DNA of 62,272 nucleotides from Sulfurimonas sp. UBA6014 (GTDB lineage: Bacteria > Campylobacterota > Campylobacteria > Campylobacterales > Sulfurimonadaceae). The stretch covers positions 18,984-81,255 of the forward strand of contig DJAA01000034.1 in NCBI GenBank assembly GCA_002428085.1, written 5' to 3'. The notes under the pieces were generated by a model that was not told the origin of the DNA, did not search any database, and saw only the letters and a list, made by a program, of their open reading frames with translations. A program made the translations under genes and the position numbers. This document shows, one piece after another, positions 3,419 to 19,984 of the stretch (positions are counted from its first letter, which is position 1; every line of letters begins with the position of its first letter).

Positions 3419-3759
3419 TGCATGAATATAGCATAGTACAGTCGCTTTTAGATTCGTGTGATGAAAATGCCAGAAAAAACAATGCAACAAAAGTGACAAA
3501 AGTTATCGTCAAAATTGGGGTCATGAGCGGAGTAGAGCCTAGTTTGCTTCAGAGCGCTTTTGATACTTTTAAAGAAAAAACGATTTGCGAGGAAGCGGAG
3601 TTTATTATCAATATGCAAGATGTTTTAGTGCGGTGCAATAGCTGTCATGAAGAGTCAACTTTGCAAAAGTTGGAGTATTGTTGTCCAAAATGTGGGAGCA
3701 CAGACCTTAAAATACTCGATGGCGAAGAGATGTACTTAATGCGTTTAGAGCTCGAGTGA
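3418..3759 (+). CDS. hypA: Hydrogenase nickel insertion protein HypA
   Basis: N-terminus MHEYSI. Zinc motif CNSCHEE...CCPKCGS. The ATG at 3418 overlaps the hypE TAA; the track ORF starts 6 nt upstream at TTG. Confidence 0.9.
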   Translation: MHEYSIVQSLLDSCDENARKNNATKVTKVIVKIGVMSGVEPSLLQSAFDTFKEKTICEEAEFIINMQDVLVRCNSCHEESTLQKLEYCCPKCGSTDLKILDGEEMYLMRLELE

Positions 3760-4554
3760 GCGGCGGTGCTCTTTTACAAAATCATAAGCATTTTGGATGA
3801 CTTGAAATCTGTTTGTGTAAAGTTTGATGACTTCATTGTTTTGATGATAAACGGTGTCAGGATGGTATTTTTTTAGCATATATAAATAGTTCTTCTTCAT
3901 TTGGCTCGGTGTTGATGTATCGCAGATGTTGAGGAGTTTGTAAGATTTTTTCAGTTTTTCTTCGTACATGTGTTCAGCTAATGCGGTGTCTTCTTGATAT
4001 GAGCGCTTAAAACTCAGTCCATAGGTGATGAAATGGATAGGGATGCTTACTATTTTTTTGTTTGATAAGATATTTTTTAGGAGTAAAAAAGCGGCTTTTG
4101 TAGTGATTTTAAGAGTAAAACTTGTTTTTTTAGGACCAAGCCGTATGGCATCTTTAAATATAAATTGAAAATATTTAAAAATCTTTTCATGGTAGTGTGA
4201 GAAAGAGACTAGAATTTCAAGTGTATTGATTTTTTCAATAGTGACTCTAGTCTGCTGCGCAACTTGGGTATTGTTTGAAGTTATGATATGAATGGGCATT
4301 TCATGAGAGGCTATTAATTGGTTTAAAAAAGTGGGACTTGTTAAAGGAAAGGCTTTTTTGTGAATTTTAAAAGCCCAGTTTAGAAGATATTTTTTTTTGA
4401 TTTCTTCACCACTTTCATATAAAATAACACTCATGTTTGAAAAATGCTTGATACTTTTAAAACTTTTTTCAGCAAAAAGCATAAGAGGTTTTAAATGCAA
4501 AGAGTCGTTTTGAAGATTAAAAACAATTGCATTATTTTCAAAAGTAATCAGCAT
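3745..4554 (-). CDS. J-domain protein (C-terminal DnaJ-like J domain; N-terminal ~200 aa unassigned)
   Basis: The C-terminal ~65 aa contain KKNYLYMLKKYHPDTV (HPD tripeptide) and helices typical of a J domain. The 3' end overlaps hypA convergently by 15 nt. Confidence 0.7.
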   Translation of the reverse strand: MLITFENNAIVFNLQNDSLHLKPLMLFAEKSFKSIKHFSNMSVILYESGEEIKKKYLLNWAFKIHKKAFPLTSPTFLNQLIASHEMPIHIITSNNTQVAQQTRVTIEKINTLEILVSFSHYHEKIFKYFQFIFKDAIRLGPKKTSFTLKITTKAAFLLLKNILSNKKIVSIPIHFITYGLSFKRSYQEDTALAEHMYEEKLKKSYKLLNICDTSTPSQMKKNYLYMLKKYHPDTVYHQNNEVIKLYTNRFQVIQNAYDFVKEHRRSLEL

Positions 4555-4617: not shown

Positions 4618-6105
4618 TTAAAACATTTCAAAATCATCTTCATCTTCGGTAATTTCTATTTTATTAAAAATAAGTTCAAATTGTAAGATGGTGCTAAATA
4701 AAGAACTATCCAAATAGTGGATATCATTAACGGCTTGGTCAATAAAGACATTGCGTCTCCAAGTTGATAAATCAAGCAAAATATTTGAGAGATAGAGTTC
4801 GATTTTTTTATGCGTACTTTCATCTATATCTTCTGTTTGTACTGTTTGCAGCAATTCGCCTAAGGAATTGACGGCATACGATAAATCTTCAAACTCAACT
4901 AATAAAGCTATAAAAGTGGCATAGTTTAAAAGTTTCTCAGAGATTTTACCTAGTGCTGCAAAGTTTTTTTCTTCATTGAACTCTTTGATAAGTCCATATA
5001 TATCGTCTTCTATCTCTGCAAGGTCCTCATTTGTTTCTAGAGTATAATCATCTAGATTGGCACTATAATCTTGTGAACTTACAGCTAAACTTTGACGGGA
5101 TTTTTTTAAAACATTCAACTCTTGTTTATTGAGAACTCTTTTTTCTTTGGATGTTTTTTCTATTGTATTTTCATCTTCTGACTTAGTATGTGAAATTTTT
5201 TCTTCAGAAAGAGCTTCAAAAATAGCTTTGTCACTACTGTTTCCTTTACGAGATTTTTTTATAAAATCTTCTAATCGTAAGTTGTAATGATAGATTTTAA
5301 GTTTTTGGTACTCTATGGTGGTGATGTTGTTCAATGTATACATTTTTAAGGATACGTCATTTAAGAATGGTATATCGCTTATGAAAATATTGTAAATGTT
5401 TCTTCCTGCTCCTGCAGAGGCAAGGGAGATTTTATTTATTTTACTGTTTGTGTCAATCTCTGCTAAGCTGCTTATATATCCAGGCTTTGCTTGAAAAAGT
5501 GAGTCAAGGGAAAATTCACTTCCGATGAAGAGATGTTTTTCTTTATTTGTGAGTCTTAAAAATTTTGAATTGGCATATTGCACTTTTTTGCCGTCATAGA
5601 CAATGATTGGATTTGGGCTGTTTTCTAAAAAAGCACTCAAGGTTGCAATGCTTTGTTCATCTTTTTTTCGGTTTTTTTCTACCTCTTGAGAGACTCTTTT
5701 TTCTAAAAAATGATTTAACTCTTCAAGCTGTGTAACATCTTGTCTAAGAGCTAAGTACTCTACAACAGTATTTTGAGAGTCTAAAATAGGGACTATTGTA
5801 ACAGTAACATAGTAACTAGAGCCATCTTTAGCACGATTTTTAATTTTCCCCTTCCATATTTCTTTGGCTTTGATGGTTTTCCATAAATCTTTATAAACTG
5901 CGGCGGAGACGTCAGGATGCCTGACAATATTATGATTTTTGCCAAGCAATTCTTCTTGGGTATATCCCGATATTTTACAAAATTCATCATTTGCAAAAGT
6001 GATTTCACCTTTGAGATTTGTTTTGGAGACAATCGAACCTGCATCTACAGCTTTTTTATACTCTTCTAAAAGTTTCATGTTATTTTTTAGTTCTTCTTTA
6101 TACAT
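4618..6105 (-). CDS. Cytoplasmic signalling protein: Aer/CetB-type PAS + second PAS-like region + Lys/Glu/Ser-rich linker + unassigned C-terminal helical module with acidic ...DDFEMF terminus
   Basis: PAS motif GKNHNIVRHPDVSAAVYKDLWKTIKAKEIWKGKIKNRAKDGSSYYV resembles the E. coli Aer PAS. The last 135 aa align without gaps to the C-terminus of the 6119..7408 product. Confidence 0.75.
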   Translation of the reverse strand: MYKEELKNNMKLLEEYKKAVDAGSIVSKTNLKGEITFANDEFCKISGYTQEELLGKNHNIVRHPDVSAAVYKDLWKTIKAKEIWKGKIKNRAKDGSSYYVTVTIVPILDSQNTVVEYLALRQDVTQLEELNHFLEKRVSQEVEKNRKKDEQSIATLSAFLENSPNPIIVYDGKKVQYANSKFLRLTNKEKHLFIGSEFSLDSLFQAKPGYISSLAEIDTNSKINKISLASAGAGRNIYNIFISDIPFLNDVSLKMYTLNNITTIEYQKLKIYHYNLRLEDFIKKSRKGNSSDKAIFEALSEEKISHTKSEDENTIEKTSKEKRVLNKQELNVLKKSRQSLAVSSQDYSANLDDYTLETNEDLAEIEDDIYGLIKEFNEEKNFAALGKISEKLLNYATFIALLVEFEDLSYAVNSLGELLQTVQTEDIDESTHKKIELYLSNILLDLSTWRRNVFIDQAVNDIHYLDSSLFSTILQFELIFNKIEITEDEDDFEMF

Positions 6106-6118
6106 ATAAAAACCCTTT

Positions 6119-7408
6119 TTAAAAAAATTCTAAATCGTCTTCTTCTTCGGCTATCCCTTCTTCTTTGAAGATGGATTCAATCTGTAAACAAGAACTCAAA
6201 AGAGAAGAATCAAGATAGTGGATGTCGTTCGCCTCTTGGTTGACAAATATATTTACTCTCCAGCTGTTTAAATCTGCTATGAATCCAAGCATGAGCGTTA
6301 CGAGTTTTTTAATTTTATTTTCATCAAGCTTAGAAGATTCTAAATTTGCTAAAAAATTTGCAAGCGAAGCAATGGCATATGAGAGATGTTCAAACTCAAC
6401 GAGTTGTTTTATGACTTCTACATATGTTAAAAATAGTTCTGACATTTTTTGTAAATCTGCAATATCGCATTGTTTTTCAAACGCAAGTAAAGCGATATCT
6501 AGTTCTTCTTCGATAGTCTCAAGGGACTCTATTTTATCCATAAAAGAGATCGCAGTCATCTCTAAGTATTCAATTGCGGTGATTTTATTGAAATGTGTTT
6601 TTGAGAGAATTTCTTTGGCTTGAGTTGGGATTTCTATAATAACTGCAGGTTGTGTGGAGATGACTTGTATCTTAGGCAATTTAAATGATAAAACACCCTC
6701 GTGAAGTACATAGAGGCTATTTTTGCAATGTTTGAGAAGGATACTACGAATAATCGTAGAACTAATAAAATCAAGCGAAGTTTGTGTCACATAAAGATAC
6801 TCATCGTTCTCTTCAATAATAATGGCAAAAGGGTGGTTTGTTTTTAAGAGCCATAAGCCAAGCCCATAGAGTATTCTTACTGTATCACTGATATTAGTTG
6901 CACCATATTCACTTTTGTTCAGTGTGTCGTTCCAAAAAAAGGCAAGAGCTGCCTCAGAGTTGATTGTAAATTTTTTTGAGAGAGGGTAGGCTGTGTCACT
7001 AAAGAGAGAAACCATTTGCGTTTTTTGGATTGGTTTGGAGCGCATAGAGAGGATAGTCATGTAGTTTTTAGCACGCTGAACAAAAAGCTCGCTATCTATG
7101 GGTTTGGTGATGTAATCTTGCGCGCCACTTTGAAGCATGGCATGTTTAGACTTTTCATCATCAAGCGCACTTAGAGCGATTATCATGCTTGCGGGCGAGA
7201 AAGATTTAATCTCTTTAGTAGCTTCAATACCATCGACTTTTGGCATCATGATATCCATAAATATAAGGTCAAAGTTTTTTTCTCTACACTTTAAAATTGC
7301 CTCAGCCCCATCGATGGCTTCTTCAACATTGATATCTTTAATATCTTCAAGAAGAAGATTCACTGTCATTCTATTGTCTTGGTTATCATCCACTATCAAA
7401 ATATTCAT
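6119..7408 (-). CDS. Response-regulator receiver protein with unassigned middle region and the shared C-terminal helical module (...EEDDLEFF terminus)
   Basis: The REC domain is intact: IVDDN acidic pocket, FMDIMMP phospho-Asp site, ALSA, ITKP. No DNA-binding or enzymatic output motif is recognisable. ATGA overlap with the upstream kinase gene. Confidence 0.8.
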   Translation of the reverse strand: MNILIVDDNQDNRMTVNLLLEDIKDINVEEAIDGAEAILKCREKNFDLIFMDIMMPKVDGIEATKEIKSFSPASMIIALSALDDEKSKHAMLQSGAQDYITKPIDSELFVQRAKNYMTILSMRSKPIQKTQMVSLFSDTAYPLSKKFTINSEAALAFFWNDTLNKSEYGATNISDTVRILYGLGLWLLKTNHPFAIIIEENDEYLYVTQTSLDFISSTIIRSILLKHCKNSLYVLHEGVLSFKLPKIQVISTQPAVIIEIPTQAKEILSKTHFNKITAIEYLEMTAISFMDKIESLETIEEELDIALLAFEKQCDIADLQKMSELFLTYVEVIKQLVEFEHLSYAIASLANFLANLESSKLDENKIKKLVTLMLGFIADLNSWRVNIFVNQEANDIHYLDSSLLSSCLQIESIFKEEGIAEEEDDLEFF

Positions 7409-8559
7409 TCTTTTCCCTTTTTAGTTTTAGAGTTTGTAAAGACGAGCTCAAAGTTTGTTCCACCCAAAAGCTGTGAGTCTAGGATGCGATAATTTATGTT
7501 TAAATCATTACATATGAGCTTTAAAAAATAGAGACCTATCCCTGTTCCTTGTGTCTCTCTTTTCATAAGAGAGCTATTTCCCTGTTCGTAAAGATCAAAA
7601 ACTGACTCCTTATCTGCTATCCCTTTTCCATTGTCATGGATACAAATTTTTATATCATTATTGGACTTTTGTATATTGATACTAATCTTGTTGTCGCCGT
7701 ATTTTATCGCATTAGAGAGTATATTGCTCAGAACTTGCTTAACTCTGTATTCATCCGAATAAATTTCGTTTATTTCACTTGTTAAAAAATCTACTTGGAT
7801 ATTTTTTGCTTGAATCAACGATTCAAACTGCTCTAAAAGAGATATGACTAACTTGTTAAGACTAAAGAGTTTTTTATTGTAGTCGAGTTTATTGGATTGA
7901 AGCTTTGATATGTCTAAAATATTATTGACATTATCAAGCATATCATTCGCATTTACAATGATAGATTTTAAAAGCTTTGCAGTTTTTACAGGTTCTAAAA
8001 CTTGTGAATTGACTACTTTGAGATGAAGATACTTTGAAAAATTTATAATGGCATTAAGCGGTGTTTTAAGCTCATGAGTGAACAAAACTAAAAAAGCCTC
8101 TTTGGCGTCATTTATCCGTTTTTCTTCCTCTTTTTTGAGCATATCGGCTTGCATTTTTCGTTTTAAATGAACATAGCTAGTAACATCTTGACGAATGGCA
8201 ATAAATTCTAAAATAGTCCCTTTTTCATCTTGAAAGGGGATAATTATCGTATCTGCTAAAAATGAATTTCCATTTTTGTTCAAATTTTCTACACGACCAC
8301 GCCATATATTCCCTTCAAGAATAGTGTCCCACATCTCTTTGTACATACTTTGAGGATTATTTGGATGTCTAAAAATATTGTGTGATCGTCCCAGTAATTC
8401 TTCGGGAGGATATCCAGAGACAGTACAAAGATTATCGTTTACATACGTGATAATCCCATTTATATCCGCCTTAGAAACAATCGATGCTTCAGTAAGGACT
8501 CTAAAATAGTGACTGTCTTCATGGAGATTATTTATATAATCTTTATTTTTGTATACCAT
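7405..8559 (-). CDS. Soluble PAS-domain sensor histidine kinase (Aer/CetB-type PAS + HisKA + HATPase_c)
   Basis: PAS GRSHNIFRHPNNPQSMYKEMWDTILEGNIWRGRVENLNKNGNSF. H-box FTHELKTPLNAI. N box ILSNAIKYG. G boxes HDNGKGI and GTGIGLYF. Confidence 0.88.
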   Translation of the reverse strand: MVYKNKDYINNLHEDSHYFRVLTEASIVSKADINGIITYVNDNLCTVSGYPPEELLGRSHNIFRHPNNPQSMYKEMWDTILEGNIWRGRVENLNKNGNSFLADTIIIPFQDEKGTILEFIAIRQDVTSYVHLKRKMQADMLKKEEEKRINDAKEAFLVLFTHELKTPLNAIINFSKYLHLKVVNSQVLEPVKTAKLLKSIIVNANDMLDNVNNILDISKLQSNKLDYNKKLFSLNKLVISLLEQFESLIQAKNIQVDFLTSEINEIYSDEYRVKQVLSNILSNAIKYGDNKISINIQKSNNDIKICIHDNGKGIADKESVFDLYEQGNSSLMKRETQGTGIGLYFLKLICNDLNINYRILDSQLLGGTNFELVFTNSKTKKGKE

Positions 8560-9609
8560 TTAAAGCTTTCTCTTCTCTTCGATGAAATCAAGAATTTTTT
8601 GAGGAATATTTTGAAGTGAAGTTTGTATGTCAACACCGCCAAGGTCGTATGCGACCTTAGGCATGCCATACACAACACAACTTTTTTCATCTTGACCTAT
8701 AGTTTTTGCACCAACATTATGCATGTTGCGCATCCCTTTTGCCCCATCACTTCCCATCCCTGTCAAAATAACACCTACAGCATTAGCACCTGCGCATTTG
8801 GCAACTGAGTTAAAAAGGACATCTACTGAGGGGCGGTGTCCACTCACTTTTTCACCGCCTCCAAGTTGCACATAGTATCTATGCCCTGAACGGCGCAAAA
8901 CCATATGTAAATCTCCCGGCGCAATAAGCACCTGACCGATACTCACGCTATCACCATTTTTTGCCTCTTTTACCTCTACTTGACACAAAGAGTTAAGGCG
9001 TTGTGCAAATTGTCCTGTAAAATTCGCAGGCATATGTTGGACAATGATGATTCCAGGACTATTTCTAGGGAGTTGTATCAAAACATCTTTGAGTGCTTCT
9101 GTTCCCCCAGTGGATGCTCCGATGGCTACGATTTTTTGCGTTGTCTCTGAGAGTGCTCCATGATAGGTAAGCGGTTTTATTGGTGGTGTATCGGTGGATT
9201 TTATTTGTATTTTGGCACGTGCGGCAGATTTTACTTTTGCTAAAAGCTCCTCGCGAATCTCATCTGAGCCATCATAAATATTGGAGTGTGGTTTAGCCAC
9301 AAAATCAATCGCACCCGCTTCAAGCGCGTCAAGCGTTGTTTTTGCCCCTTTTTGGGTTAAAGATGAAACCATAACAACAGGCAGTGGCATGAACTGCATA
9401 AGTTTTTTTACAAAAGTTATGCCGTCCATGCGAGGCATTTCTACATCCAGACAAATAACATCGGGTTTTGATTTGAGAATTTTATCCCGTGCTACGTAGG
9501 CATCGACAGCTGTTTCAACACTGCTTATGTCGGGGTCTTTTGACAATATATCACTTAAAACCGCTCGAGCCGTAGCACTGTCATCAACTATCAAGACCTT
9601 GATTCCCAT
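8560..9609 (-). CDS. cheB: Chemotaxis response regulator protein-glutamate methylesterase CheB
   Basis: Receiver domain (VDDSATAR, DVEMPRMDG) plus methylesterase motifs GASTGG, HMPANFT and GMGSDG. Confidence 0.93.
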   Translation of the reverse strand: MGIKVLIVDDSATARAVLSDILSKDPDISSVETAVDAYVARDKILKSKPDVICLDVEMPRMDGITFVKKLMQFMPLPVVMVSSLTQKGAKTTLDALEAGAIDFVAKPHSNIYDGSDEIREELLAKVKSAARAKIQIKSTDTPPIKPLTYHGALSETTQKIVAIGASTGGTEALKDVLIQLPRNSPGIIIVQHMPANFTGQFAQRLNSLCQVEVKEAKNGDSVSIGQVLIAPGDLHMVLRRSGHRYYVQLGGGEKVSGHRPSVDVLFNSVAKCAGANAVGVILTGMGSDGAKGMRNMHNVGAKTIGQDEKSCVVYGMPKVAYDLGGVDIQTSLQNIPQKILDFIEEKRKL

Positions 9610-10073
9610 TATTCACTCTCTTTTATATATTTGAGCATCACTTTGCCTGTATCACTGATCATTAAAATGCGTCTGCCTTGTGTGCCACCAACATCTTGTG
9701 CGGTAATGGGTATTTTGTATTCGTTCAAAACCTCTTTGGCAATGACGATGTTTTTACGTCCAACCATCATATCTTCATGCGCGATTGTATCTATGACATT
9801 ACCGCCGCCAAAAATTTTGGCTTCCATGTTGTTGAGTTTACAACCGACGTTGAGCATCCCCTCGACAAGTCGGTGGATGGCGATATTTCCATATTTGGGA
9901 CTTTGGAGTCCATTTCCGTTCCACAACGGCACCAAATAATGGTTCATCCCGCCAATCATCTCCACTTTGTCGTAAATGCATACAGAAACACATGAGCCCA
10001 AAATGGTACTTATTTCAGTCGGTCTAGCTCCAATGTAAAACTCACCGACATGAATGAATTTTTTAATAAGCAT
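9609..10073 (-). CDS. cheD: Chemoreceptor glutamine deamidase CheD
   Basis: 154-aa CheD-family protein with the LGSCVSVCIYD catalytic Cys region. One-nt start/stop overlaps with both neighbours. Confidence 0.88.
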   Translation of the reverse strand: MLIKKFIHVGEFYIGARPTEISTILGSCVSVCIYDKVEMIGGMNHYLVPLWNGNGLQSPKYGNIAIHRLVEGMLNVGCKLNNMEAKIFGGGNVIDTIAHEDMMVGRKNIVIAKEVLNEYKIPITAQDVGGTQGRRILMISDTGKVMLKYIKESE

Positions 10074-10966
10074 TAAAACTCCATCATACCACTGTCTGAG
10101 GATTCTTCAAAAAATTCATCTGAACCAAGTCCCTCCGAGACAGATAAACTCGCTTCATCTTTCTGAGCTATTTTTACTAAAAAGACAGTTTTATCATCTT
10201 CACTAAAATGATCAATAGAGCCATCAAGAGACTCAACGATTTCTTTAACAACACTCAATCCAAGACCCAAACCTTGCCCTGGTCGCGTTTTCCCTGTGTT
10301 GTGTTTGTAGAAACGGTTATAAATATTTTTACTGTGATCCGCATATACTCCTTCACCAAAATCTTCAACTCGTATAATATAATCACTTCCTTCTTGCGCA
10401 AATACAATATTTACATCTGCATCTGGATACGAATATTCACAAGCATTTGAGAGGAGATTGAGCAAAATAAGATAAAGTTTTTGCCCATCTGTGACCATTT
10501 TTTCTAGCATCTTATTTTCTACTTTTATATGCAATGATTTTTCTTTTATAAGATGCTCAAAATAGTTTATTGCCTCTTGCGCAATATCTTCAGGGGTGAT
10601 GCGTGCATATGCATTTCCCATCTCGCCGTACTCTATTTCAGAAGCGGCAAAGATATTTTTGAGACTAAAGTCCAGATACGTAAGCTCACTTCGCATCATC
10701 GAACCGATGGCATCAAGACGTGTAGTGTCCACATCTTTTTTGATTTTTCTAGAGAGGCTCAGAAGTGAAGAGAGCGGATTGTTGAACTCATTTTTGATGA
10801 GGGATAAAAAGTAGCTTTTTGCGGCTTCAACTTCTTTGCTACGTTCATTCATTTCAAGAAGTTTTTTGGTCATAAATTCCATTTCAGCGATTGAAGCACT
10901 TTTCTCTTCAAACCTTCTTCCTATCTCTTTTAAAAGCGCTTGGTCACTCATGTTGAATATTTCCAT
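10073..10966 (-). CDS. Histidine-kinase-like protein lacking the phospho-acceptor His (DHp-like helix + intact-looking HATPase_c), acidic ...SGMMEF terminus
   Basis: The H-box position reads FLSLIKNEFNNPL, with Asn codon 10790-10792 where His is expected. N box LLSNACEYS. G1 EDFGEG. G2 GQGLGLGLS. No TM segment or sensor domain. Confidence 0.75.
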   Translation of the reverse strand: MEIFNMSDQALLKEIGRRFEEKSASIAEMEFMTKKLLEMNERSKEVEAAKSYFLSLIKNEFNNPLSSLLSLSRKIKKDVDTTRLDAIGSMMRSELTYLDFSLKNIFAASEIEYGEMGNAYARITPEDIAQEAINYFEHLIKEKSLHIKVENKMLEKMVTDGQKLYLILLNLLSNACEYSYPDADVNIVFAQEGSDYIIRVEDFGEGVYADHSKNIYNRFYKHNTGKTRPGQGLGLGLSVVKEIVESLDGSIDHFSEDDKTVFLVKIAQKDEASLSVSEGLGSDEFFEESSDSGMMEF

Positions 10967-10975
10967 TTTCTTTCC

Positions 10976-11800
10976 TTATTGTTTCATATAGATTGATGAT
11001 CTAACTAACTTTAAATTTTTAACACTTGGTGGAATCGACTCAGAGTGCCCGATAAAAAGTAATCCGCCAGTTTGCAAAAGCTTTGTAAGGTGGACATTTA
11101 TCTGAGTTTGTATCACTTTATCAAAATAAATCATGACATTGCGACAAAAAATGATGTCGATAGGATTGGTAAACATGTTGTAGTTCCCATAGACTAGATT
11201 ATATTTGCGAAAAGTAATCATTTTTTTTATAGAATCATTGACGATAAATTCTTTTGCGATTGGATTGTTTCTCAGAGTAAAATATTTTTTTATGAGGCTA
11301 GTTGATAATCCTTCCATAGATTTTTGAGAATAAATTCCCTGCATCGCCTTTTTTAAAATATCTTCAGAGATATCTGTTGCCAATATTTTAATATCCCATG
11401 ATTCAATATTTGGGATATGCTCATGTAAAAATATAGCAATACTATACGGCTCTTCACCACTGGATGAGGCACTTGACCAGATGCGTAACTTTTTCTTTTC
11501 TTTTTTTAAAAGAGTATTTTTGACATACTCTTGAAAATAAACCCATTGCTCTTTCTCGCGAAAAAAAGAGGTAACGTTTGTAGTGATGGCATCTTCAAGC
11601 TCAAAGTCGGCAGTGCTACCACTTTGATGAATAAAATATTCATAAAGCTCCATATAGCTCTTTAACCCTTTTTTAGTCACGAGCTTACTAAGTCTCGATT
11701 GCATCATGGAGACTTTTTGATCATTTAAAGAGATGCCTAATCTCTCATGAATAAGCTCTCTAAAGAGGTTGAACTCTTTTTTTTTTAATTCTAGCAACAT
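10976..11800 (-). CDS. cheR: Chemotaxis protein methyltransferase CheR
   Basis: CheR motifs RIWSSASSSGEEPYSIAI and IIFCRNVMIYFD. 274 aa with no extra TPR domain. Confidence 0.92.
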   Translation of the reverse strand: MLLELKKKEFNLFRELIHERLGISLNDQKVSMMQSRLSKLVTKKGLKSYMELYEYFIHQSGSTADFELEDAITTNVTSFFREKEQWVYFQEYVKNTLLKKEKKKLRIWSSASSSGEEPYSIAIFLHEHIPNIESWDIKILATDISEDILKKAMQGIYSQKSMEGLSTSLIKKYFTLRNNPIAKEFIVNDSIKKMITFRKYNLVYGNYNMFTNPIDIIFCRNVMIYFDKVIQTQINVHLTKLLQTGGLLFIGHSESIPPSVKNLKLVRSSIYMKQ

Positions 11801-11803
11801 TTT

Positions 11804-13921
11804 TTAATGGACTTTTATCTTAAAAAGTGCATCTACGTTGAGAATAAGAGCAATCTCTCCATTTCCCATAACTGCACCTCCCGTAATACCTTCTAGTTTA
11901 GCAAGCGCTTTTCCTAAGGGTTTGATAACTACCTGCTGACGCCCCACTAAATCATCAATAAGGAGTGCATATTTGCCATCTTCACTCTCGACGCAAATGA
12001 GAGTTGACTCCCAAATTTCTGGTCGTTTGTCGTTAATATCTAGTATCTCATTGAGGCGCATAACAGGAATCATCTCGCCGCGAAGGTCTACAAACTCCCC
12101 TTTGTTCCTTGCCGTATGAACAATATCTTTTGAAGGGATAAAAGATTCAACAACACTTAACGTAGGGATAATAAATATATCTCCCGCACTTTTAACAATC
12201 ATGCCATCAATAATCGCCAAAGTAAGCGGAAGTAAAATCGTAAAAACAGAGCCTTCCCCCATTTTTGACTCAATTTCTACCTTTCCTTGAAGTTTTTCGA
12301 TAGAGGAGCGAACAACATCAAGTCCAACTCCACGACCTGAAATATCGCTAATCACATCCGCAGTAGAAAACCCTGCTTGCATGATGAGTCCATATATTTG
12401 CTGGTCGCTTAAAACATCCTCTTTACTTATGATACCTCGCTCTAGTGCTTTGGCATAGACTTTATCTTTGTTAATGCCGCGTCCATCATCACGTACTTCA
12501 ATAGCGATATTTCCCGCTTTATGATACGCTCTTAAAAGAACATGCCCTTTTGGATTTTTACCTGCTGCTGCACGCTCTTGAACGGTCGCTTCTATCCCAT
12601 GGTCAATAGCATTTCTAATGATGTGAATGAGTGGGTCAGAGAGTGAGTCAACCATAGTTTTATCAACCTCAGTCTCTTCTCCTTCTATGCGCAACTCTAT
12701 ATCTTTGTTCACTTTTTTAGAAGCATCTCGCGCAACACGTTTCATTTTGTCAAATGTGTCATGAACGGGGACCATTCTCAGCGCCATAACACGGTTTTGG
12801 ATAAGACGGGTGATTTTGCTAAGGTTTTCAATGGTCCTTGTTAGCTGAGGGCTGTTGAGACTTTTGATCTCTTCATTTTCAGATACAAAGTTTTGAGTGA
12901 TGACCATCTCGCCCACAGAATCAAAAAGTTCGTCTAATTTTTGTGTATCTATTTTTATGAAAGAGCGTTTATCTTCTTTGCGACGATGTTCAAACTCTAT
13001 AGGCTCTTCTTTTGTGTTTGCTTGAGTTTTCTCTTGTATCAAAGGAGCTATTTCATCGGCTACAACGGTTGCTTCATGGAGAACAACTCTTTCTTCTGGA
13101 AGTGCTTCATTGTCGTTTTGTGTAGCTTCTATCAAAGTGATAGAAAACTCTTGAGGTTCAACAAATAAAAATACCTCTTCAATCGAGTCAACACTCTCCT
13201 CGCTTTCTAAAAAAAGCTCAACATGACTCCAGTGACTTATCTCAACATCAAAATTTTCTATTGTTTGGATGTGAGGAACACTCCATCTAGATTGGAGTAT
13301 TTGTCCTTTTTCACTTAAGAGACCAAAGAAGCGTCCATGGTCATATCCCCTATGATAAATATCGTTATCAAGTTTTAAAACTATTTTATATAAAAATTTT
13401 CCAAGTTGCGCTACTGGCTCTTGGATAGTTTTTTCTTCTATTTTTTTTGGTTCATCTATAAATGTGAAAGGTTCATCTTTATTAGAAAACTCTTGAGCAA
13501 CATTACTCATATCTGCAAAAGGGGTCTCTTGAGTTGATTTGTTCAGAAGAAGCTGTTTGATAGATTCAAGGGTAGAGTGGTAGTTTGGAGGAACACCCTC
13601 ATCTCCACTTACTTCTAGCCAGAGTGTTGCTTTTATGACATCTACAGCACTTAGAAAAATATCTATTGCATAAGCTGGCACACTCACTGTGCTATCGCGG
13701 TAGTGATCTAAAACATCTTCAAAAAGATGGACAAATCCGCCCAAACGGGTAAAACCAAAAGAGTTGGCACTTCCTTTAAGTGTATGAACACCGCGAAAGA
13801 GCTCATTGAGTAACTCTTTATTTTGTGAGTCCTCTTCATAATTGATAATATCTATATCGAGTTTCTCAATGATTTCAGTTGCTTCTTCGATAAATATAGA
13901 ACGTATTTCTTCTTTAGTCAT
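11804..13921 (-). CDS. cheA: Chemotaxis histidine kinase CheA (no fused receiver)
   Basis: P1 HPt FRGVHTLKGSANSFG. N box IIRNAIDHGIE. G boxes RDDGRGI and GRGVGLDVV. C-terminal CheW-like P5. I place the start at MTKEEIRS (ATG 13921), which overlaps the upstream stop as ATGACTAA; the track ORF extends 11 codons further. Confidence 0.92.
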   Translation of the reverse strand: MTKEEIRSIFIEEATEIIEKLDIDIINYEEDSQNKELLNELFRGVHTLKGSANSFGFTRLGGFVHLFEDVLDHYRDSTVSVPAYAIDIFLSAVDVIKATLWLEVSGDEGVPPNYHSTLESIKQLLLNKSTQETPFADMSNVAQEFSNKDEPFTFIDEPKKIEEKTIQEPVAQLGKFLYKIVLKLDNDIYHRGYDHGRFFGLLSEKGQILQSRWSVPHIQTIENFDVEISHWSHVELFLESEESVDSIEEVFLFVEPQEFSITLIEATQNDNEALPEERVVLHEATVVADEIAPLIQEKTQANTKEEPIEFEHRRKEDKRSFIKIDTQKLDELFDSVGEMVITQNFVSENEEIKSLNSPQLTRTIENLSKITRLIQNRVMALRMVPVHDTFDKMKRVARDASKKVNKDIELRIEGEETEVDKTMVDSLSDPLIHIIRNAIDHGIEATVQERAAAGKNPKGHVLLRAYHKAGNIAIEVRDDGRGINKDKVYAKALERGIISKEDVLSDQQIYGLIMQAGFSTADVISDISGRGVGLDVVRSSIEKLQGKVEIESKMGEGSVFTILLPLTLAIIDGMIVKSAGDIFIIPTLSVVESFIPSKDIVHTARNKGEFVDLRGEMIPVMRLNEILDINDKRPEIWESTLICVESEDGKYALLIDDLVGRQQVVIKPLGKALAKLEGITGGAVMGNGEIALILNVDALFKIKVH

Positions 13922-14180
13922 GGTGTATCCAATGCAAACTGCCATAATTGGCAAGTTTTAGTATTCCATCGTCTATTGCGGGAATGCGAATTTGAGGTTT
14001 GCTTTTTTTGATACTAAATAAAAGAGCAAAAAGGGAAGAAGAGACAAAAATCTCTTTCTCCCCAATCACTTCTATAGATTCAATATATTCTAAACGGGGT
14101 TGAATAAACTTTTTTAGCTCGATTACTTCACCCAAATCCATATCTAGTTCTATCTCAAGAACATCGCCATCTATTGTCAT
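13914..14180 (-). CDS. Small STAS-like (SpoIIAA/anti-sigma-antagonist-like) protein
   Basis: 88 aa. The beta-alpha pattern and the FVSSSLFALL segment resemble the STAS ...fiDSSGl... region. Abuts the mcp stop and overlaps the cheA start. Confidence 0.5.
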   Translation of the reverse strand: MTIDGDVLEIELDMDLGEVIELKKFIQPRLEYIESIEVIGEKEIFVSSSLFALLFSIKKSKPQIRIPAIDDGILKLANYGSLHWIHHD

Positions 14181-16136
14181 TTAGAACTCCTTCAAGTCCT
14201 CATCATCAAGTGGAAAAACGTCATGATTGCTCTTTGAAGGTTTTTTAGACGCGAGAGCTTTTTTAGGTTGTGCAAAGCCCATACGCTTCGTTGTTTTTTG
14301 CGTGCGACCTGTTGGTCTCTCTGAGTGTCCTGCACTTGTAATACCAACCATTGCTGCGATAACTGCCACCATATCTTGCATAGAGACAGCTTGCGCGTTG
14401 AGCTCTTCAGATGCAGCTGCGGCTTCTTCAGATGTTGCAGCATTTTGTTGTGTTACTTGGTCGATATTTCCCATAGCTTGCGCGATTTGGCTCATCCCTT
14501 CACTTTGTTCTTTTGTAGAGATAGAGATTTCACTGATAAGATTTGAAGTCTTTTTGATTCGCTCATCAATATTTCCAAATGCCTCATTTGTTTTCTTTGC
14601 TACATCTAAACCATTTTTGATTTGTTTGATTGATTGCTCGATGATCTCTGAAGTCTCTGTCGCAGCATTTGCTGAGCGTTGAGCAAGACCTTTAACTTCA
14701 TCAGCAACAACGGCAAAACCTAATCCATGCTCACCTGCACGTGCCGCTTCAACAGCTGCATTAAGGGCTAGAAGTTTTGTTTGTGATGCTATCTCATCAA
14801 TAGTTTTGATGATTTTTGCGATTCTCTCACTTGAACTGTTTATCTCTTGCATAGCAGCCATCAGTTCCGTTCCACGTGCAAAACCTTCAGATGCGGCTTC
14901 TTTGGTATCTTTTGCCAAGATATCCGCTTCACGAGAGTTGTCTGCATTTTGGTTGTTGATGGCAGTTGCTTGCTCTACCGTCGCACTTACCTCTTCTATA
15001 GAGCTTGCTTGTTGGGAGGCACCCTCTGCTAAAGCTTGAGAAGATTCAGATATTTCACCCGCCGCACTTACGACTTGTGAGTTCGCACTTGTGATGGACT
15101 CAACTGCACGAATAATAGGAACTGTGATACTTCTAATGAGGTAAACAGCCAAAGAGGCACCAACAATCAACGCTATGATTAAACCTACAATCATGATGTA
15201 AGAAGATGCAGCCAAACTCTCAGCTGATTCTTTTGAAATTTCAGCAGTTTGACCCATCGCAACTCTCGCTGTTTCTTGTGCTGCTTCTAAAACTTCGCTG
15301 CCTACACTTGTACGCTTTTTAGCGAGTTCTTCAAGCATAATCCAACTTTTGATAAAGTTGTCAAGCGCTTCTTTATACTCGTTTGCAGCCATTTCTGTCT
15401 CTTTAATCGTCTCAAGATCTTCTGCTCTAAAGGTTATTTTGGTAAGAGCACCAAACAACTGTTCCATTTTAGGAAAGTTTTTTTGTGCATCGTAAATGAT
15501 AGACGGCTCTCGAAGTGCCTGTGATTTGAATGCTTTGATTCTTGTGTCATTCCCTATATCGATAATATCATTGACGATTGATATTTTTTGCAATCTCTCT
15601 TTAAGTTTTTCAGGAGACTGTTTGGAAGCAATCTCACTGTTCATCATTTTTGTCTGGTTGAGTAAAAAATCATTACAACTTGCCATATACTTCGCCGCAC
15701 CTTTGTCAAGGTCGCCTCTATAAGTATTGAGCTTGCCTAGAAGAGTTTCTGTATCTGTAATAAGTGCATCGTACTCTAGAGTTTTTATTCTTGCTTTTTT
15801 CTCAAGTTCAGTGAGCTTTGGCAATGAATATTTTTCAGCAAGTGCTTTAGCCTCATCAAGATGGAATTTTATATCACTTAAATACTGGCGTCCTTCCACG
15901 AGAAATTTCTTCTCTTCACTCAGACCATACCCTCTGATGGCATACATAGTTAAAAGAGCGTGTCTCTCGACATTATTTCCTACTCCCAACTCTGGCACAT
16001 ATATATTTGCTAGCTGGTGTGAACCTTCCTCAACGTTTTTCATGTTAATGATAGCCATTGAACCCAAAATAACGGTGATCAAAAGGAGTAAAACAAACCC
16101 TATACTAATCTTATATGTTAATGTCAAATTTTTCAT
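14181..16136 (-). CDS. Methyl-accepting chemotaxis protein (two TM segments, ~290-aa helical periplasmic domain)
   Basis: Hairpin tip [34 protein letters not shown]. Methylation-type sites [16 protein letters not shown] and AASEELNA. Long low-complexity C-terminal linker ending DDEDLKEF. Confidence 0.93.
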
Positions 16137-16138
16137 CT

Positions 16139-16660
16139 TTACACTCCTGCTTTTTCTGTTTTATTTGATTTACGCTCTTCGAAAGAACCGATTTGTGTCA
16201 GTTCGTCATCCTCAAAAATCTTTTCCATGTCAAGAATCAAAATAACATCTGATCCAACTTCTGCAACACTCTTGATAAAAGTGGTGTCAATATGTGAGCC
16301 AAATTTTGGTGGTTCATTTAAATCTTTTTCACTAAATGTGAGAACATCCTCAACTCGGTCCACAATAAAGCCTATGTTTACCCCACTCACTTCATTGATG
16401 ATAATTGCAGTGTTCATATCATGCTCTTTTTTTTCTATGCCAAACTTTACGCGAATGTCTACTATGGGGATAATAGAACCACGAAGATTGACAACCCCTT
16501 CTACGAAAGGCGGAGTTCTAGGTACATGCGTGATTTTCATCATTGCAATAATTTCGTTTATGTGAGAAATATCTATTCCATACTGTTCATTCTTAACAAA
16601 GAAACTCAAATAACGATGTCTGCTTCCGCCTTCTTCACCTTCTAAATCTTTTGTTCTCAT
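16139..16660 (-). CDS. cheW: Chemotaxis coupling protein CheW
   Basis: 173-aa single CheW-like domain ([21 protein letters not shown]..., [13 protein letters not shown]). Confidence 0.9.
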
Positions 16661-17046
16661 TAAATCCCCAATACCATTTTTACAGCTTTAATCAGCTTTT
16701 CATCACTAAATGGCTTTACCATCCACCCCGTAACCCCTATCTCTTTGCCTCTTTCTTTCATAACAGGAGAACTCTCTGTTGTTAAAATCAGAATAGGTTT
16801 ATTTTTAAAACGTTCATCTGCTTTTAATGTTGCTGCGAGGTCAAGTCCATTCATCTGCGGCATATTTATATCACTGATGAGCATGTCGAAATTTTCATTT
16901 CCGCTCATCAAAAGATTTAGCAGCTCTGCAGGATTTTGATAAAGTGCTAAAATAACGCCCCCATTTTGCACCATCTCATCGAGCGCCATTTGAGCGGTAG
17001 CCAAAATAGTTTTTGAATCATCTACTAAAATAACTTTCTTTGCCAA
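16660..17046 (-). CDS. cheY: Chemotaxis response regulator CheY
   Basis: 128-aa stand-alone receiver (LVDDS, ISDINMPQMNG, LTTE, VKPF). First gene of the operon. Confidence 0.9.
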   Translation of the reverse strand: MAKKVILVDDSKTILATAQMALDEMVQNGGVILALYQNPAELLNLLMSGNENFDMLISDINMPQMNGLDLAATLKADERFKNKPILILTTESSPVMKERGKEIGVTGWMVKPFSDEKLIKAVKMVLGI

Positions 17047-19219: not shown

Positions 19220-19984
19220 ATGAAGAGAGTTGTCGTAAAAGTTGGAAGTGCAGTTTTAGCCCAAAATGGTGTTTTGGCAGAAGAAAGAATGCAGGCATTA
19301 GTAGATTTTTTATCGCAACTTCACCAATCCCATGAAGTTATTTTAGTCTCTTCAGGCGCAGTAGCTGCGGGATATATCCAACTCCAACTTGATAGAAAAA
19401 TTTTGCAAAACAAGCAAGCATTGGCTTCTATAGGGCAACCTGTTCTCATGAATAGATACGCTCAGAAATTTTCCAAATATGATATCCTAACAGCACAAGT
19501 TTTGGTAACTGCGGCAAATTTTAGAAAGGCTGGCGATATTACTAGAATCAAAAATACTGTCGATACACTTTTGCTCAATAAAGTTATTCCCATCGTCAAT
19601 GAAAATGATGCAACTGCAACGCAAGAGCTTGTTTTAGGTGATAATGATCAGCTTTCAGCATACATAACAAAGCATACAGATTCAGATATGTTGATAATAC
19701 TCTCGGACATTGATGCGTATTATGACTCTGACCCGCGTGAAAATCCAAATGCAAAGGTACTCAAAGTTGTAAATAGTATTGAAGATTCTCAACTGCAAAA
19801 AAATGCCAATCCAAATAATCTTTTTGCTACAGGCGGAATCGTTACAAAATTAAAAGCGGCTGCTTATCTCTTAGAATGTGGAAATAGTATGTTTTTATCA
19901 AGCGGATTTGATTTACATGACGTCAAAAGTTTTATGCTTGAAGATAAACATTTAGGCGGCACGCTGTTTAAAAAAGAGTTTTAA
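19220..19984 (+). CDS. proB: Glutamate 5-kinase (short form without PUA domain)
   Basis: Amino-acid kinase family; VVKVGSAVL N-terminus; 254 aa. Confidence 0.9.
   Translation: MKRVVVKVGSAVLAQNGVLAEERMQALVDFLSQLHQSHEVILVSSGAVAAGYIQLQLDRKILQNKQALASIGQPVLMNRYAQKFSKYDILTAQVLVTAANFRKAGDITRIKNTVDTLLLNKVIPIVNENDATATQELVLGDNDQLSAYITKHTDSDMLIILSDIDAYYDSDPRENPNAKVLKVVNSIEDSQLQKNANPNNLFATGGIVTKLKAAAYLLECGNSMFLSSGFDLHDVKSFMLEDKHLGGTLFKKEF

Follow-up and report, generated by a model that had tools for sequence, protein, structure and literature searches.

Chemosensory clusters of the F7 type are typified by a receptor of heptad class 36H encoded together with cheR, cheD and cheB, and additional F7, F8 or F9 clusters with one or two cognate receptors occur in Sulfurimonas, Sulfuricurvum and Sulfurospirillum (PMC9321776). 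In gammaproteobacteria the ancestral F7 cluster consists of STAS, cheY, cheA, cheW, aer2, cheR, cheD, cheB, mcpA, a further STAS gene and a Ser phosphatase gene (PMC7184735). Here we analyse a chemotaxis operon from a 62,272-nt stretch of Sulfurimonas sp. UBA6014 DNA (the window, in whose positions all operon genes are numbered), in which four signalling proteins finish in a similar acidic tail with a C-terminal Phe. One of them is the receptor, a methyl-accepting chemotaxis protein (MCP); the others are a kinase-like protein lacking the phospho-acceptor His (psHK), a receiver protein and a PAS protein. Judged by its gene set (cheR, cheD and cheB) and its 36H receptor, the cluster is F7-like.

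C-terminal peptides of related form have been described on receptors. Heptad-class rules exist for pentapeptide receptors, including those of classes 36H and 34H in F7/F8-type clusters (PMC9321776, PMC2577667), and the criterion applied to a tether pentapeptide is x-[FWY]-x-x-[FWY] (Perez & Stock / Ortega & Krell; PMC7390727). Receptors of the Aer2/Tar type, class 36H, have the ending x-W-x-x-F: McpB of P. aeruginosa ends in GWEEF and binds CheR2 at 0.52 µM and CheB2 at 93 µM (PMC7698151), and Geobacter 36H receptors end in DWKEF (PMC2577667). In E. coli the same pentapeptide site serves both CheR and phospho-CheB (bioRxiv 10.1101/2024.03.07.583918). For the receptors of V. cholerae System III, which end in E-[W/V]-E-x-F, CheR3 has been put forward in a 2025 review as the enzyme that binds them (PMC11940527). 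The McpA-like receptors of ancestral F7 systems do not show the aromatic pattern and end in DIELF, EVELF, DLELF, EIELF or TVELF, and the role of this ending has been called 'important yet unclear' (PMC7184735).

Translation of the minus-strand open reading frames (ORFs) placed the four termini at the very stop codons from which the initial annotation had read them: the MCP ends in ...DLKEF, psHK in ...EESSDSGMMEF, the receiver protein in ...AEEEDDLEFF and the PAS protein in ...TEDEDDFEMF. Five of the 70 non-overlapping ORFs of the window end in Phe, four being these operon proteins, and the chance of all four matches falling among the 12 operon ORFs of this 70-ORF window is 5e-4. A broader background was provided by 135 related loci, made up of 55 genome loci (from Sulfurimonas, Sulfuricurvum, Sulfurospirillum and other Campylobacterales) found with a psHK profile and 80 metagenome loci retrieved independently with a profile of the C-terminal domain (CTD) of the receiver and PAS proteins; about 20 kb per genome was covered. 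Outside the four families, 2 of 1,476 ORFs in these loci agreed with our tail rule, namely F as the last residue (position 0), a hydrophobic residue at -3 and at least three acidic residues in the last ten. At this background rate the probability that at least four of 12 operon proteins would agree with it is 1.7e-9, so that the tails are enriched in the operon over unrelated proteins of related DNA, a point that the initial annotation had proposed to check. Chance, or composition in an AT-rich genome, has only the small size of the motif to recommend it and can be considered excluded, given these two figures and the retention of the tails down to about 40% overall protein identity.

The fifth Phe-ending ORF of the window (19220-19984, plus strand) ends in ...GGTLFKKEF, which is basic and not acidic, and is unrelated to the operon. 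Both background matches represent one family, a 276-aa ORF ending in ...ELEDIFNF and located near PAS-CTD genes (L099, 14721-15551; L134, 14798-15628; both on the minus strand), and ORFs of L092 and L093 that end in ...DEIPF, SSB-like by eye and from the ending alone, fail the tail rule.

Conservation of the termini in orthologous operons, which had been put forward as a check on their significance, was pronounced when the distinct sequences of both locus sets were pooled. The MCP ended in DLKEF in 58 of 59 sequences, the motif being preceded by a conserved [VI]FPL and, further upstream, by a linker of about 45 residues that is not conserved. In psHK the E at -1 was present in 76 of 76 sequences, with M, A or L at -3, and the last residue was F in 47 of them, M in 14, L in 14 and I in one. 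Proteins with the CTD had F at 0 in 101 of 102 sequences and E at -2 in 92 of 102, position -1 being F or L, -3 being L, I, F or M, and -4 being [DE]; orthologues of the PAS protein ended in DFELF, DLELF, SLELF or DLILF. As judged from these alignments, the tails are not random and strong purifying selection acts on them where they close linkers that vary or are disordered; a conserved island at the end of such a segment is what marks a short linear interaction motif.

The invariant positions nevertheless differ between the proteins and define two classes. Class 1 has the form Phi-x-E-F (Phi, hydrophobic), with E at -1, and includes the MCP (DLKEF) and psHK ([ML]xEF), whereas class 2 has the form [DE]-Phi-E-Phi-F, with E at -2 and a hydrophobic residue at -1, and includes the receiver (REC-CTD) and PAS-CTD proteins. 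The claim that four proteins carry the same tail is therefore right as regards the acidic run, the hydrophobic residue at -3 and the Phe at 0, but there are two classes, and two of the tails are paralogous. Since the domain in which the receiver and PAS proteins are paralogous includes the tail, the tails represent three independent occurrences and not four, and the suggested extension of the tether idea beyond receptors seems to hold with that lower number: such tails do occur on non-receptor proteins.

On the receptor the tail takes the place of a known tether. The MCP can be aligned with residues 261-516 of E. coli Tsr over 256 residues without a gap, which assigns it to heptad class 36H; the EE/QQ pairs of the methylation sites are retained, and the position of its tail equals that of the Tsr linker and NWETF on a 36H receptor. 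The best NCBIfam match of the MCP, below cut-off, was Vibrio Aer2. The linker of roughly 50 residues initially described before the tail was found again as the unconserved segment ahead of the conserved end; it is basic, with 10 K/R versus 2 D/E in 44 residues, and the last ~10 residues are acidic, this combination being the charge pattern of pentapeptide receptors (bioRxiv 10.1101/2024.03.07.583918). As already pointed out for three of the four tails, position 2 is Leu or Met in DLKEF, GMMEF and DLEFF, which consequently fail x-[FWY]-x-x-[FWY]; only DFEMF of the PAS protein fits it literally. DLKEF is DWKEF with Leu for Trp and, in terms of its residues, class 1 is the F7/36H receptor pentapeptide (DWKEF, GWEEF) with its Trp changed to Leu or Met.

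The second class 1 protein, psHK, does lack the His, in agreement with its first description: Pfam recognises HATPase_c only, the motifs of that domain are intact, and in the H-box, which aligns with the THELKTP motif of the neighbouring PAS kinase, Asn stands in place of the phospho-acceptor (KNEFNNP). An alignment of 15 sequences with identities of 50-100% shows no variation in this motif. Next to the missing His the protein retains E-x-x-N, residues linked to phosphatase activity in HisKA proteins, and from its sequence psHK might serve as a dedicated phosphatase or else be a pseudokinase. Among its best 120 homologues (49-100% identity) 119 end in EF, and they share an upstream GS[DN]EF[FIML]F motif, separated from the end motif by a spacer of varying length. 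The nearest relatives, at 86% identity, are from Sulfurimonas metagenome-assembled genomes. The psHK gene lies almost always directly upstream of cheD, an adjacency kept in nearly all loci, including variants without CheR and CheB; locus L009 is one without cheD.

The two class 2 proteins of the window are paralogous over their last ~190 residues, tail included (BLASTP, 35% identity over 193 aa, E = 8e-30). Their CTD contains the conserved motif W...DIHYLDSSLLSSC, with no variation at the W, the His or the second Asp, and profile searches gave it no sequence match in Pfam, NCBIfam or PDB. In a collection of 1.84 billion proteins the CTD profile returned 936 representative clusters; 87 of 104 full-length members have an N-terminal receiver domain (REC), and about ten have PAS. 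Of the newly returned representatives among the best 150, 141 of 143 end in Phe, mostly as [DEG][LFIM][EDV][LF]F, and DLELF is the commonest ending of the family. Since the CTD family nearly always ends in a tail, the tail is part of a domain-plus-tail module. The majority consensus of the receiver-containing members also shows an LRxSHxxKxSAxEY motif upstream.

An AlphaFold2 model of the receiver protein, built from a 102-sequence alignment, had a mean pLDDT of 91 and resolved REC (residues 1-124), a middle domain (144-246), a disordered hinge (250-257) and the helical CTD (262-414). The tail (418-429) was modelled as coil with pLDDT < 50 and was not docked in cis, which fits a free tether. 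It also bears on the possibility that the tails are cis autoinhibitory latches that fold back on their own protein. A latch would agree with the constant presence of the tail in the CTD family, but the unstructured, low-confidence tail contrasts with a model that otherwise exceeds 90, and in the MCP the long unconserved linker separates the tail from any domain, so that we consider this explanation highly improbable. When the model was compared with PDB using Foldseek, receiver domains dominated the matches and the CTD obtained no assignment; the top match was the Leptospira response regulator LvrC (9qih), aligned across REC and a second domain, over ~300 columns. The middle domain is well modelled and has no family match. 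As a candidate identity for the CTD, a histidine phosphotransfer (HPt) domain, which is a four-helix bundle whose phospho-accepting His lies in an HxxKG context, was rejected: there was no Pfam Hpt match, hhalign against CheA P1 gave 10% probability over one helix, and the His of 'EFEHL', which would accept the phosphoryl group, is unconserved.

Tails and cluster are also linked in the genomes. Of 43 CTD-fetched metagenome loci of at least 12 kb, 27 carry at least three core genes of the same cluster, usually in the order MCP, 88-aa ORF, CheA, CheR, psHK, CheD, CheB, kinase and REC-CTD, with other orders occurring, and the kinase/REC-CTD gene pair recurs in most related loci. A natural variant is provided by a Sulfuricurvum-type cluster (L007, 8665-17261; L008, L101, L107 and L108) with the order kinase, psHK, CheD, PAS-CTD, REC-GGDEF-EAL, one more ORF, CheW and MCP, and with no CheR or CheB within 10 kb. 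In L007, where the contig extends as far as the receptor, the MCP is 58% identical to that of the window and stops at the end of the signalling domain without linker or tail; the lack of a receptor tail in a cluster without CheR and CheB nearby fits a link between that tail and these enzymes. The tails of psHK (...LKEF or LMEF) and of the PAS-CTD protein (DLILF) are kept in the variant, suggesting that they may serve another partner. The constant neighbours are CheD, CheW and usually CheA.

Taken together, these results lead us to favour, by a modest balance of probability, the idea that the four termini are docking peptides of two kinds, borne on acidic flexible extensions of proteins of an F7-type cluster; we infer both the docking and the choice of partners. 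Class 1 would tether an adaptation enzyme of the cluster, with CheB more likely than CheR: the receptor would keep its modifying enzyme at hand, and psHK would be brought to that same enzyme or compete for it. Class 2 would recruit the CTD proteins, regulated by phosphorylation or through PAS, to a conserved component, perhaps encoded elsewhere, for which CheD, CheB, CheY and CheW/CheA are the candidates.

CheR provided part of the evidence that has to be weighed against this proposal. The window CheR aligns gap-free with Salmonella CheR (1BC5/1AF7) through the beta-subdomain, and its loop has the Salmonella length, three residues longer than that of P. aeruginosa CheR1, which is reportedly independent of the pentapeptide. 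The initial annotation was thus correct that the residues of the Gly-rich loop are missing, but not as regards the loop itself. None of the six Salmonella contacts, Q182, R187, G188, G190, G194 and R197 (PMC2577667), is kept, the aligned residues being K171, L176, R177, N179, K183 and I186, and across 47 orthologues the loop from the invariant F174 to the conserved Y/F185 is variable in sequence and 8-14 residues long. DLKEF remains unchanged even in the loci with the shortest CheR loops (L021, L022 and L027). Lost contacts and a variable loop opposite an invariant DLKEF make docking of the Salmonella style unlikely on these alignments, and CheR may offer another site. A chimera of CheR with the MCP linker and tail, modelled by single-sequence AlphaFold2, was uninformative (pLDDT 33), and in the passage of PMC7184735 that cites Garcia-Fontana 2014 the EVELF tail of P. 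aeruginosa McpA is stated to bind none of the four CheRs of that species.

The remaining difficulties come from the distribution of the tails. Retention of the class 1 tail of psHK in the variant cluster fits poorly with CheR/CheB as sole partner, unless these are encoded elsewhere. Distant REC-CTD tail proteins are found outside che clusters (L139, 4010-5539; L140, 3003-4457), indicating that the partner need not be encoded adjacent to them. When position -1 of the CTD tail (F or L) was compared by mutual information with the columns of each operon protein, no outlier emerged, and the measure was confounded by phylogeny. Of the two distant genes, one lies among PAS and CHASE4 kinases, a GGDEF-EAL regulator and a dCache MCP, and the other among metabolic genes.

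The same observations bear on the shared docking partner originally proposed for all four proteins, which is supported in part, in that the tails are real, conserved and docking-like. According to this alternative all four tails would occupy one site of CheR and/or CheB, like NWETF, the non-receptor proteins serving as extra tethers or decoys. The common spacing x-Z-x-x-F, created by the hydrophobic residue at -3 and the Phe at 0 and accompanied by the acidic run, speaks in its favour, as do the long, Salmonella-length loop in the beta-subdomain of the window CheR, the assignment of both W and V tails of V. cholerae System III to CheR3 (PMC11940527) and the single site shared by E. coli CheR and phospho-CheB (bioRxiv 10.1101/2024.03.07.583918). 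Against these stand the different class invariants, the loss of all CheR contacts together with the variable loop, the McpA result and the persistence of psHK and PAS-CTD tails where CheR and CheB are not nearby. With two motif classes, each having its own counterpart in gammaproteobacterial F7 systems, namely the Aer2/Tar-type pentapeptide and the McpA-type tail (PMC7184735), one shared partner is not the simplest reading, and we regard it as unlikely, though it ranks first among the alternatives.

Two further alternatives place the tails elsewhere. If they docked, in the manner of CheZ, on the alpha4-beta5-alpha5 face of CheY or of the CheB receiver, psHK (as a phosphatase) and the CTD proteins would be brought to phospho-CheY. 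CheZ itself ends in an acidic stretch followed by ...LLDSLGF, its terminal Phe being buried in CheY; of the small proteins of the cluster, CheY is conserved best (62-88% identity across loci), and psHK has kept its E-x-x-N. The modelled response-regulator tail, however, neither folds onto its own REC nor forms a helix, and the MCP tail sits at the position of a CheR/CheB tether, for which reasons receiver docking seems to us a rather slim prospect. Alternatively, the tails might be degradation or quality-control tags for a protease or chaperone, perhaps acting via the J-domain protein, and would then set protein levels instead of tethering. Exposed, disordered C-termini with a hydrophobic end would suit this role, and a J-domain gene recurs beside the cluster in many related loci, but in its position, its linker charge and the class of its receptor the MCP tail matches a known tether, and the same motif is conserved on McpA-like receptors of another phylum. 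We know of no degron of this form and judge this explanation improbable. In falling order of likelihood the alternatives to two kinds of docking peptide are thus a single partner, docking to CheY or another receiver, a degron and a cis latch, with chance excluded.

The operon is tightly packed on the minus strand between positions 3745 and 17046, with stop and start codons overlapping at several junctions, and reads cheY, cheW, MCP, 88-aa ORF, cheA, cheR, psHK, cheD, cheB, PAS-HisKA-HATPase kinase, receiver protein, PAS protein and J-domain protein. The PAS-HisKA-HATPase kinase is the probable cognate kinase of the receiver protein. CheB is 61-89% identical across loci.

Table 1. Genes, domains and C-terminal tails of the operon, in window positions.
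Feature	Positions	Strand	Remarks
CheY	16660-17046	-	Pfam Response_reg; opens the operon
CheW	16139-16660	-	Pfam CheW; second gene, after CheY
MCP, class 36H, 651 aa	14181-16136	-	Pfam MCPsignal; signalling domain, basic linker, conserved C-terminal motif
MCP tail, 12 residues	14184-14219	-	Class 1; last five residues, DLKEF, at 14184-14198
Conserved 88-aa ORF	13914-14180	-	Between the MCP and CheA genes; no family match
CheA	11804-13954	-	Pfam Hpt, dimerisation, HATPase and CheW-like domains
CheR methyltransferase	10976-11800	-	Pfam CheR, CheR_N; beta-subdomain residues ~165-200; candidate partner
psHK, His-less HisKA-like kinase, 297 aa	10073-10966	-	Pfam HATPase_c only
psHK tail GMMEF	10076-10090	-	Class 1; read at the stop codon
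psHK upstream motif GSDEFF	10109-10126	-	Conserved
CheD deamidase	9609-10073	-	Pfam CheD; start overlaps the psHK stop by 1 nt; candidate partner
CheB methylesterase with receiver domain	8560-9609	-	Pfam CheB_methylest, Response_reg; candidate partner
PAS-HisKA-HATPase kinase	7405-8559	-	Pfam domains as named; shares 4 nt with the receiver-protein gene
Receiver protein (response regulator, REC-CTD)	6119-7408	-	Pfam Response_reg; ends in AEEEDDLEFF
CTD of receiver protein	6167-6625	-	Helical, unannotated; sequence family and AlphaFold2 model
Middle domain of receiver protein, residues 144-246	6671-6979	-	Alpha/beta in the AlphaFold2 model
Receiver-protein tail DLEFF	6122-6136	-	Class 2; read at the stop codon
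PAS-PAS-CTD protein, 495 aa	4618-6105	-	Pfam PAS; CTD proper ~4666-5118
PAS-protein tail DFEMF	4621-4635	-	Class 2; read at the stop codon
J-domain protein	3745-4554	-	Pfam DnaJ; J domain C-terminal

The 88-aa ORF, present in 32 genome loci and in most metagenome loci, has no match in Pfam, NCBIfam or PDB and contains an invariant Ser48 in ...SSSLF.LL. It had been taken for a STAS protein, an assignment that we do not uphold: no significant STAS match was obtained, hhalign giving a probability of 0.4% against a SpoIIAA query, in register with the phospho-Ser region. The CheA ORF is listed from a TTG at 13954, and the ATG at 13921 (MTKEEIR...) is probably the real start, in which case the gene would share 8 nt with the 3' end of the 88-aa ORF. 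The J-domain protein begins with a stretch of ~200 residues of unassigned type, and DjlA is among the weak NCBIfam matches of the protein.

C-terminal tethers are a textbook trait of enteric chemoreceptors, but the search for them has so far been confined to receptors and to tails whose position 2 is aromatic, so a conserved aliphatic or Met variant on a 36H receptor is missed by pattern-based censuses. In this locus tails of the same style occur on non-receptor signalling proteins of one cluster, a new domain-plus-tail module is defined, and the McpA-type tail of gammaproteobacterial F7 systems resurfaces in a different phylum, where it is borne by a large, unannotated family of response regulators. 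More tentatively, and with less confidence than we place in the two kinds of docking peptide, C-terminal 'address' peptides might be a general assembly code of F7 systems, by which a receptor, a pseudokinase and a CTD family of ~900 clusters are docked to a few array hubs. The tails would then compete under the control of phosphorylation or PAS signals and in this way adjust adaptation or output, and such a code, if true, would explain the McpA tail of Pseudomonas, Vibrio and Shewanella. The locus in any case offers a testable handle on the function and wiring of ancestral F7 systems, with few peptides to be set against a handful of proteins.

In the literature searched we found no report of such a tail on non-receptor proteins, and on a partner of the McpA tail or pentapeptides on non-receptors nothing beyond PMC7184735 and PMC11940527. 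Earlier work has described the receptor tether and the McpA tail; we did not find described the conserved Leu/Met variant on a 36H receptor, the tails on a kinase without its His and on a large response-regulator/PAS family that lacks annotation, or the recurrence across phyla of the McpA-type motif on non-receptors.

Compared with the NWETF-type tether for CheR and phospho-CheB (Tar/Tsr of E. coli and Salmonella, McpB/Aer2 of P. aeruginosa with GWEEF, Geobacter with DWKEF/EFEKF), the receptor tail described here shares the extreme C-terminus of a 36H receptor, the flexible basic linker and acidic end, the hydrophobic residue at -3, the Phe at 0 and a cluster with cheR, cheB and cheD. It differs in that position 2 is Leu or Met instead of Trp, Phe or Tyr, that the CheR contacts are lost and that the style of tail is found also on a His-less kinase. 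The McpA tail, [DET][IVL][ED]LF (Ortega et al. 2020, PMC7184735 Suppl. Table 12), has its counterpart in class 2: the CTD family follows this C-terminal pattern, DLELF, DIELF and EIELF appear in both sets, the window's DLEFF and DFEMF are one-residue variants, and the cluster type is probably the same. Here, however, the tail belongs to REC-CTD and PAS-CTD proteins of the Campylobacterota, which have a novel helical domain and no MCPsignal.

More distant parallels exist. The C-terminal CheY-binding peptide of CheZ and the N-terminal peptide of FliM show how one CheY surface is shared by different proteins, and they resemble the present case in that a short acidic/hydrophobic peptide is flexibly tethered to several signalling proteins and, in CheZ, ends in a C-terminal Phe; unlike the CheZ peptide, an amphipathic helix, the receiver tail is modelled as coil. 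In an unrelated system, the acidic C-terminal tail of SSB (DDDIPF) is a hub for many partners and likewise combines an acidic run with a hydrophobic-x-Phe end on a disordered linker. There one protein serves many partners, whereas here many proteins carry the tail.

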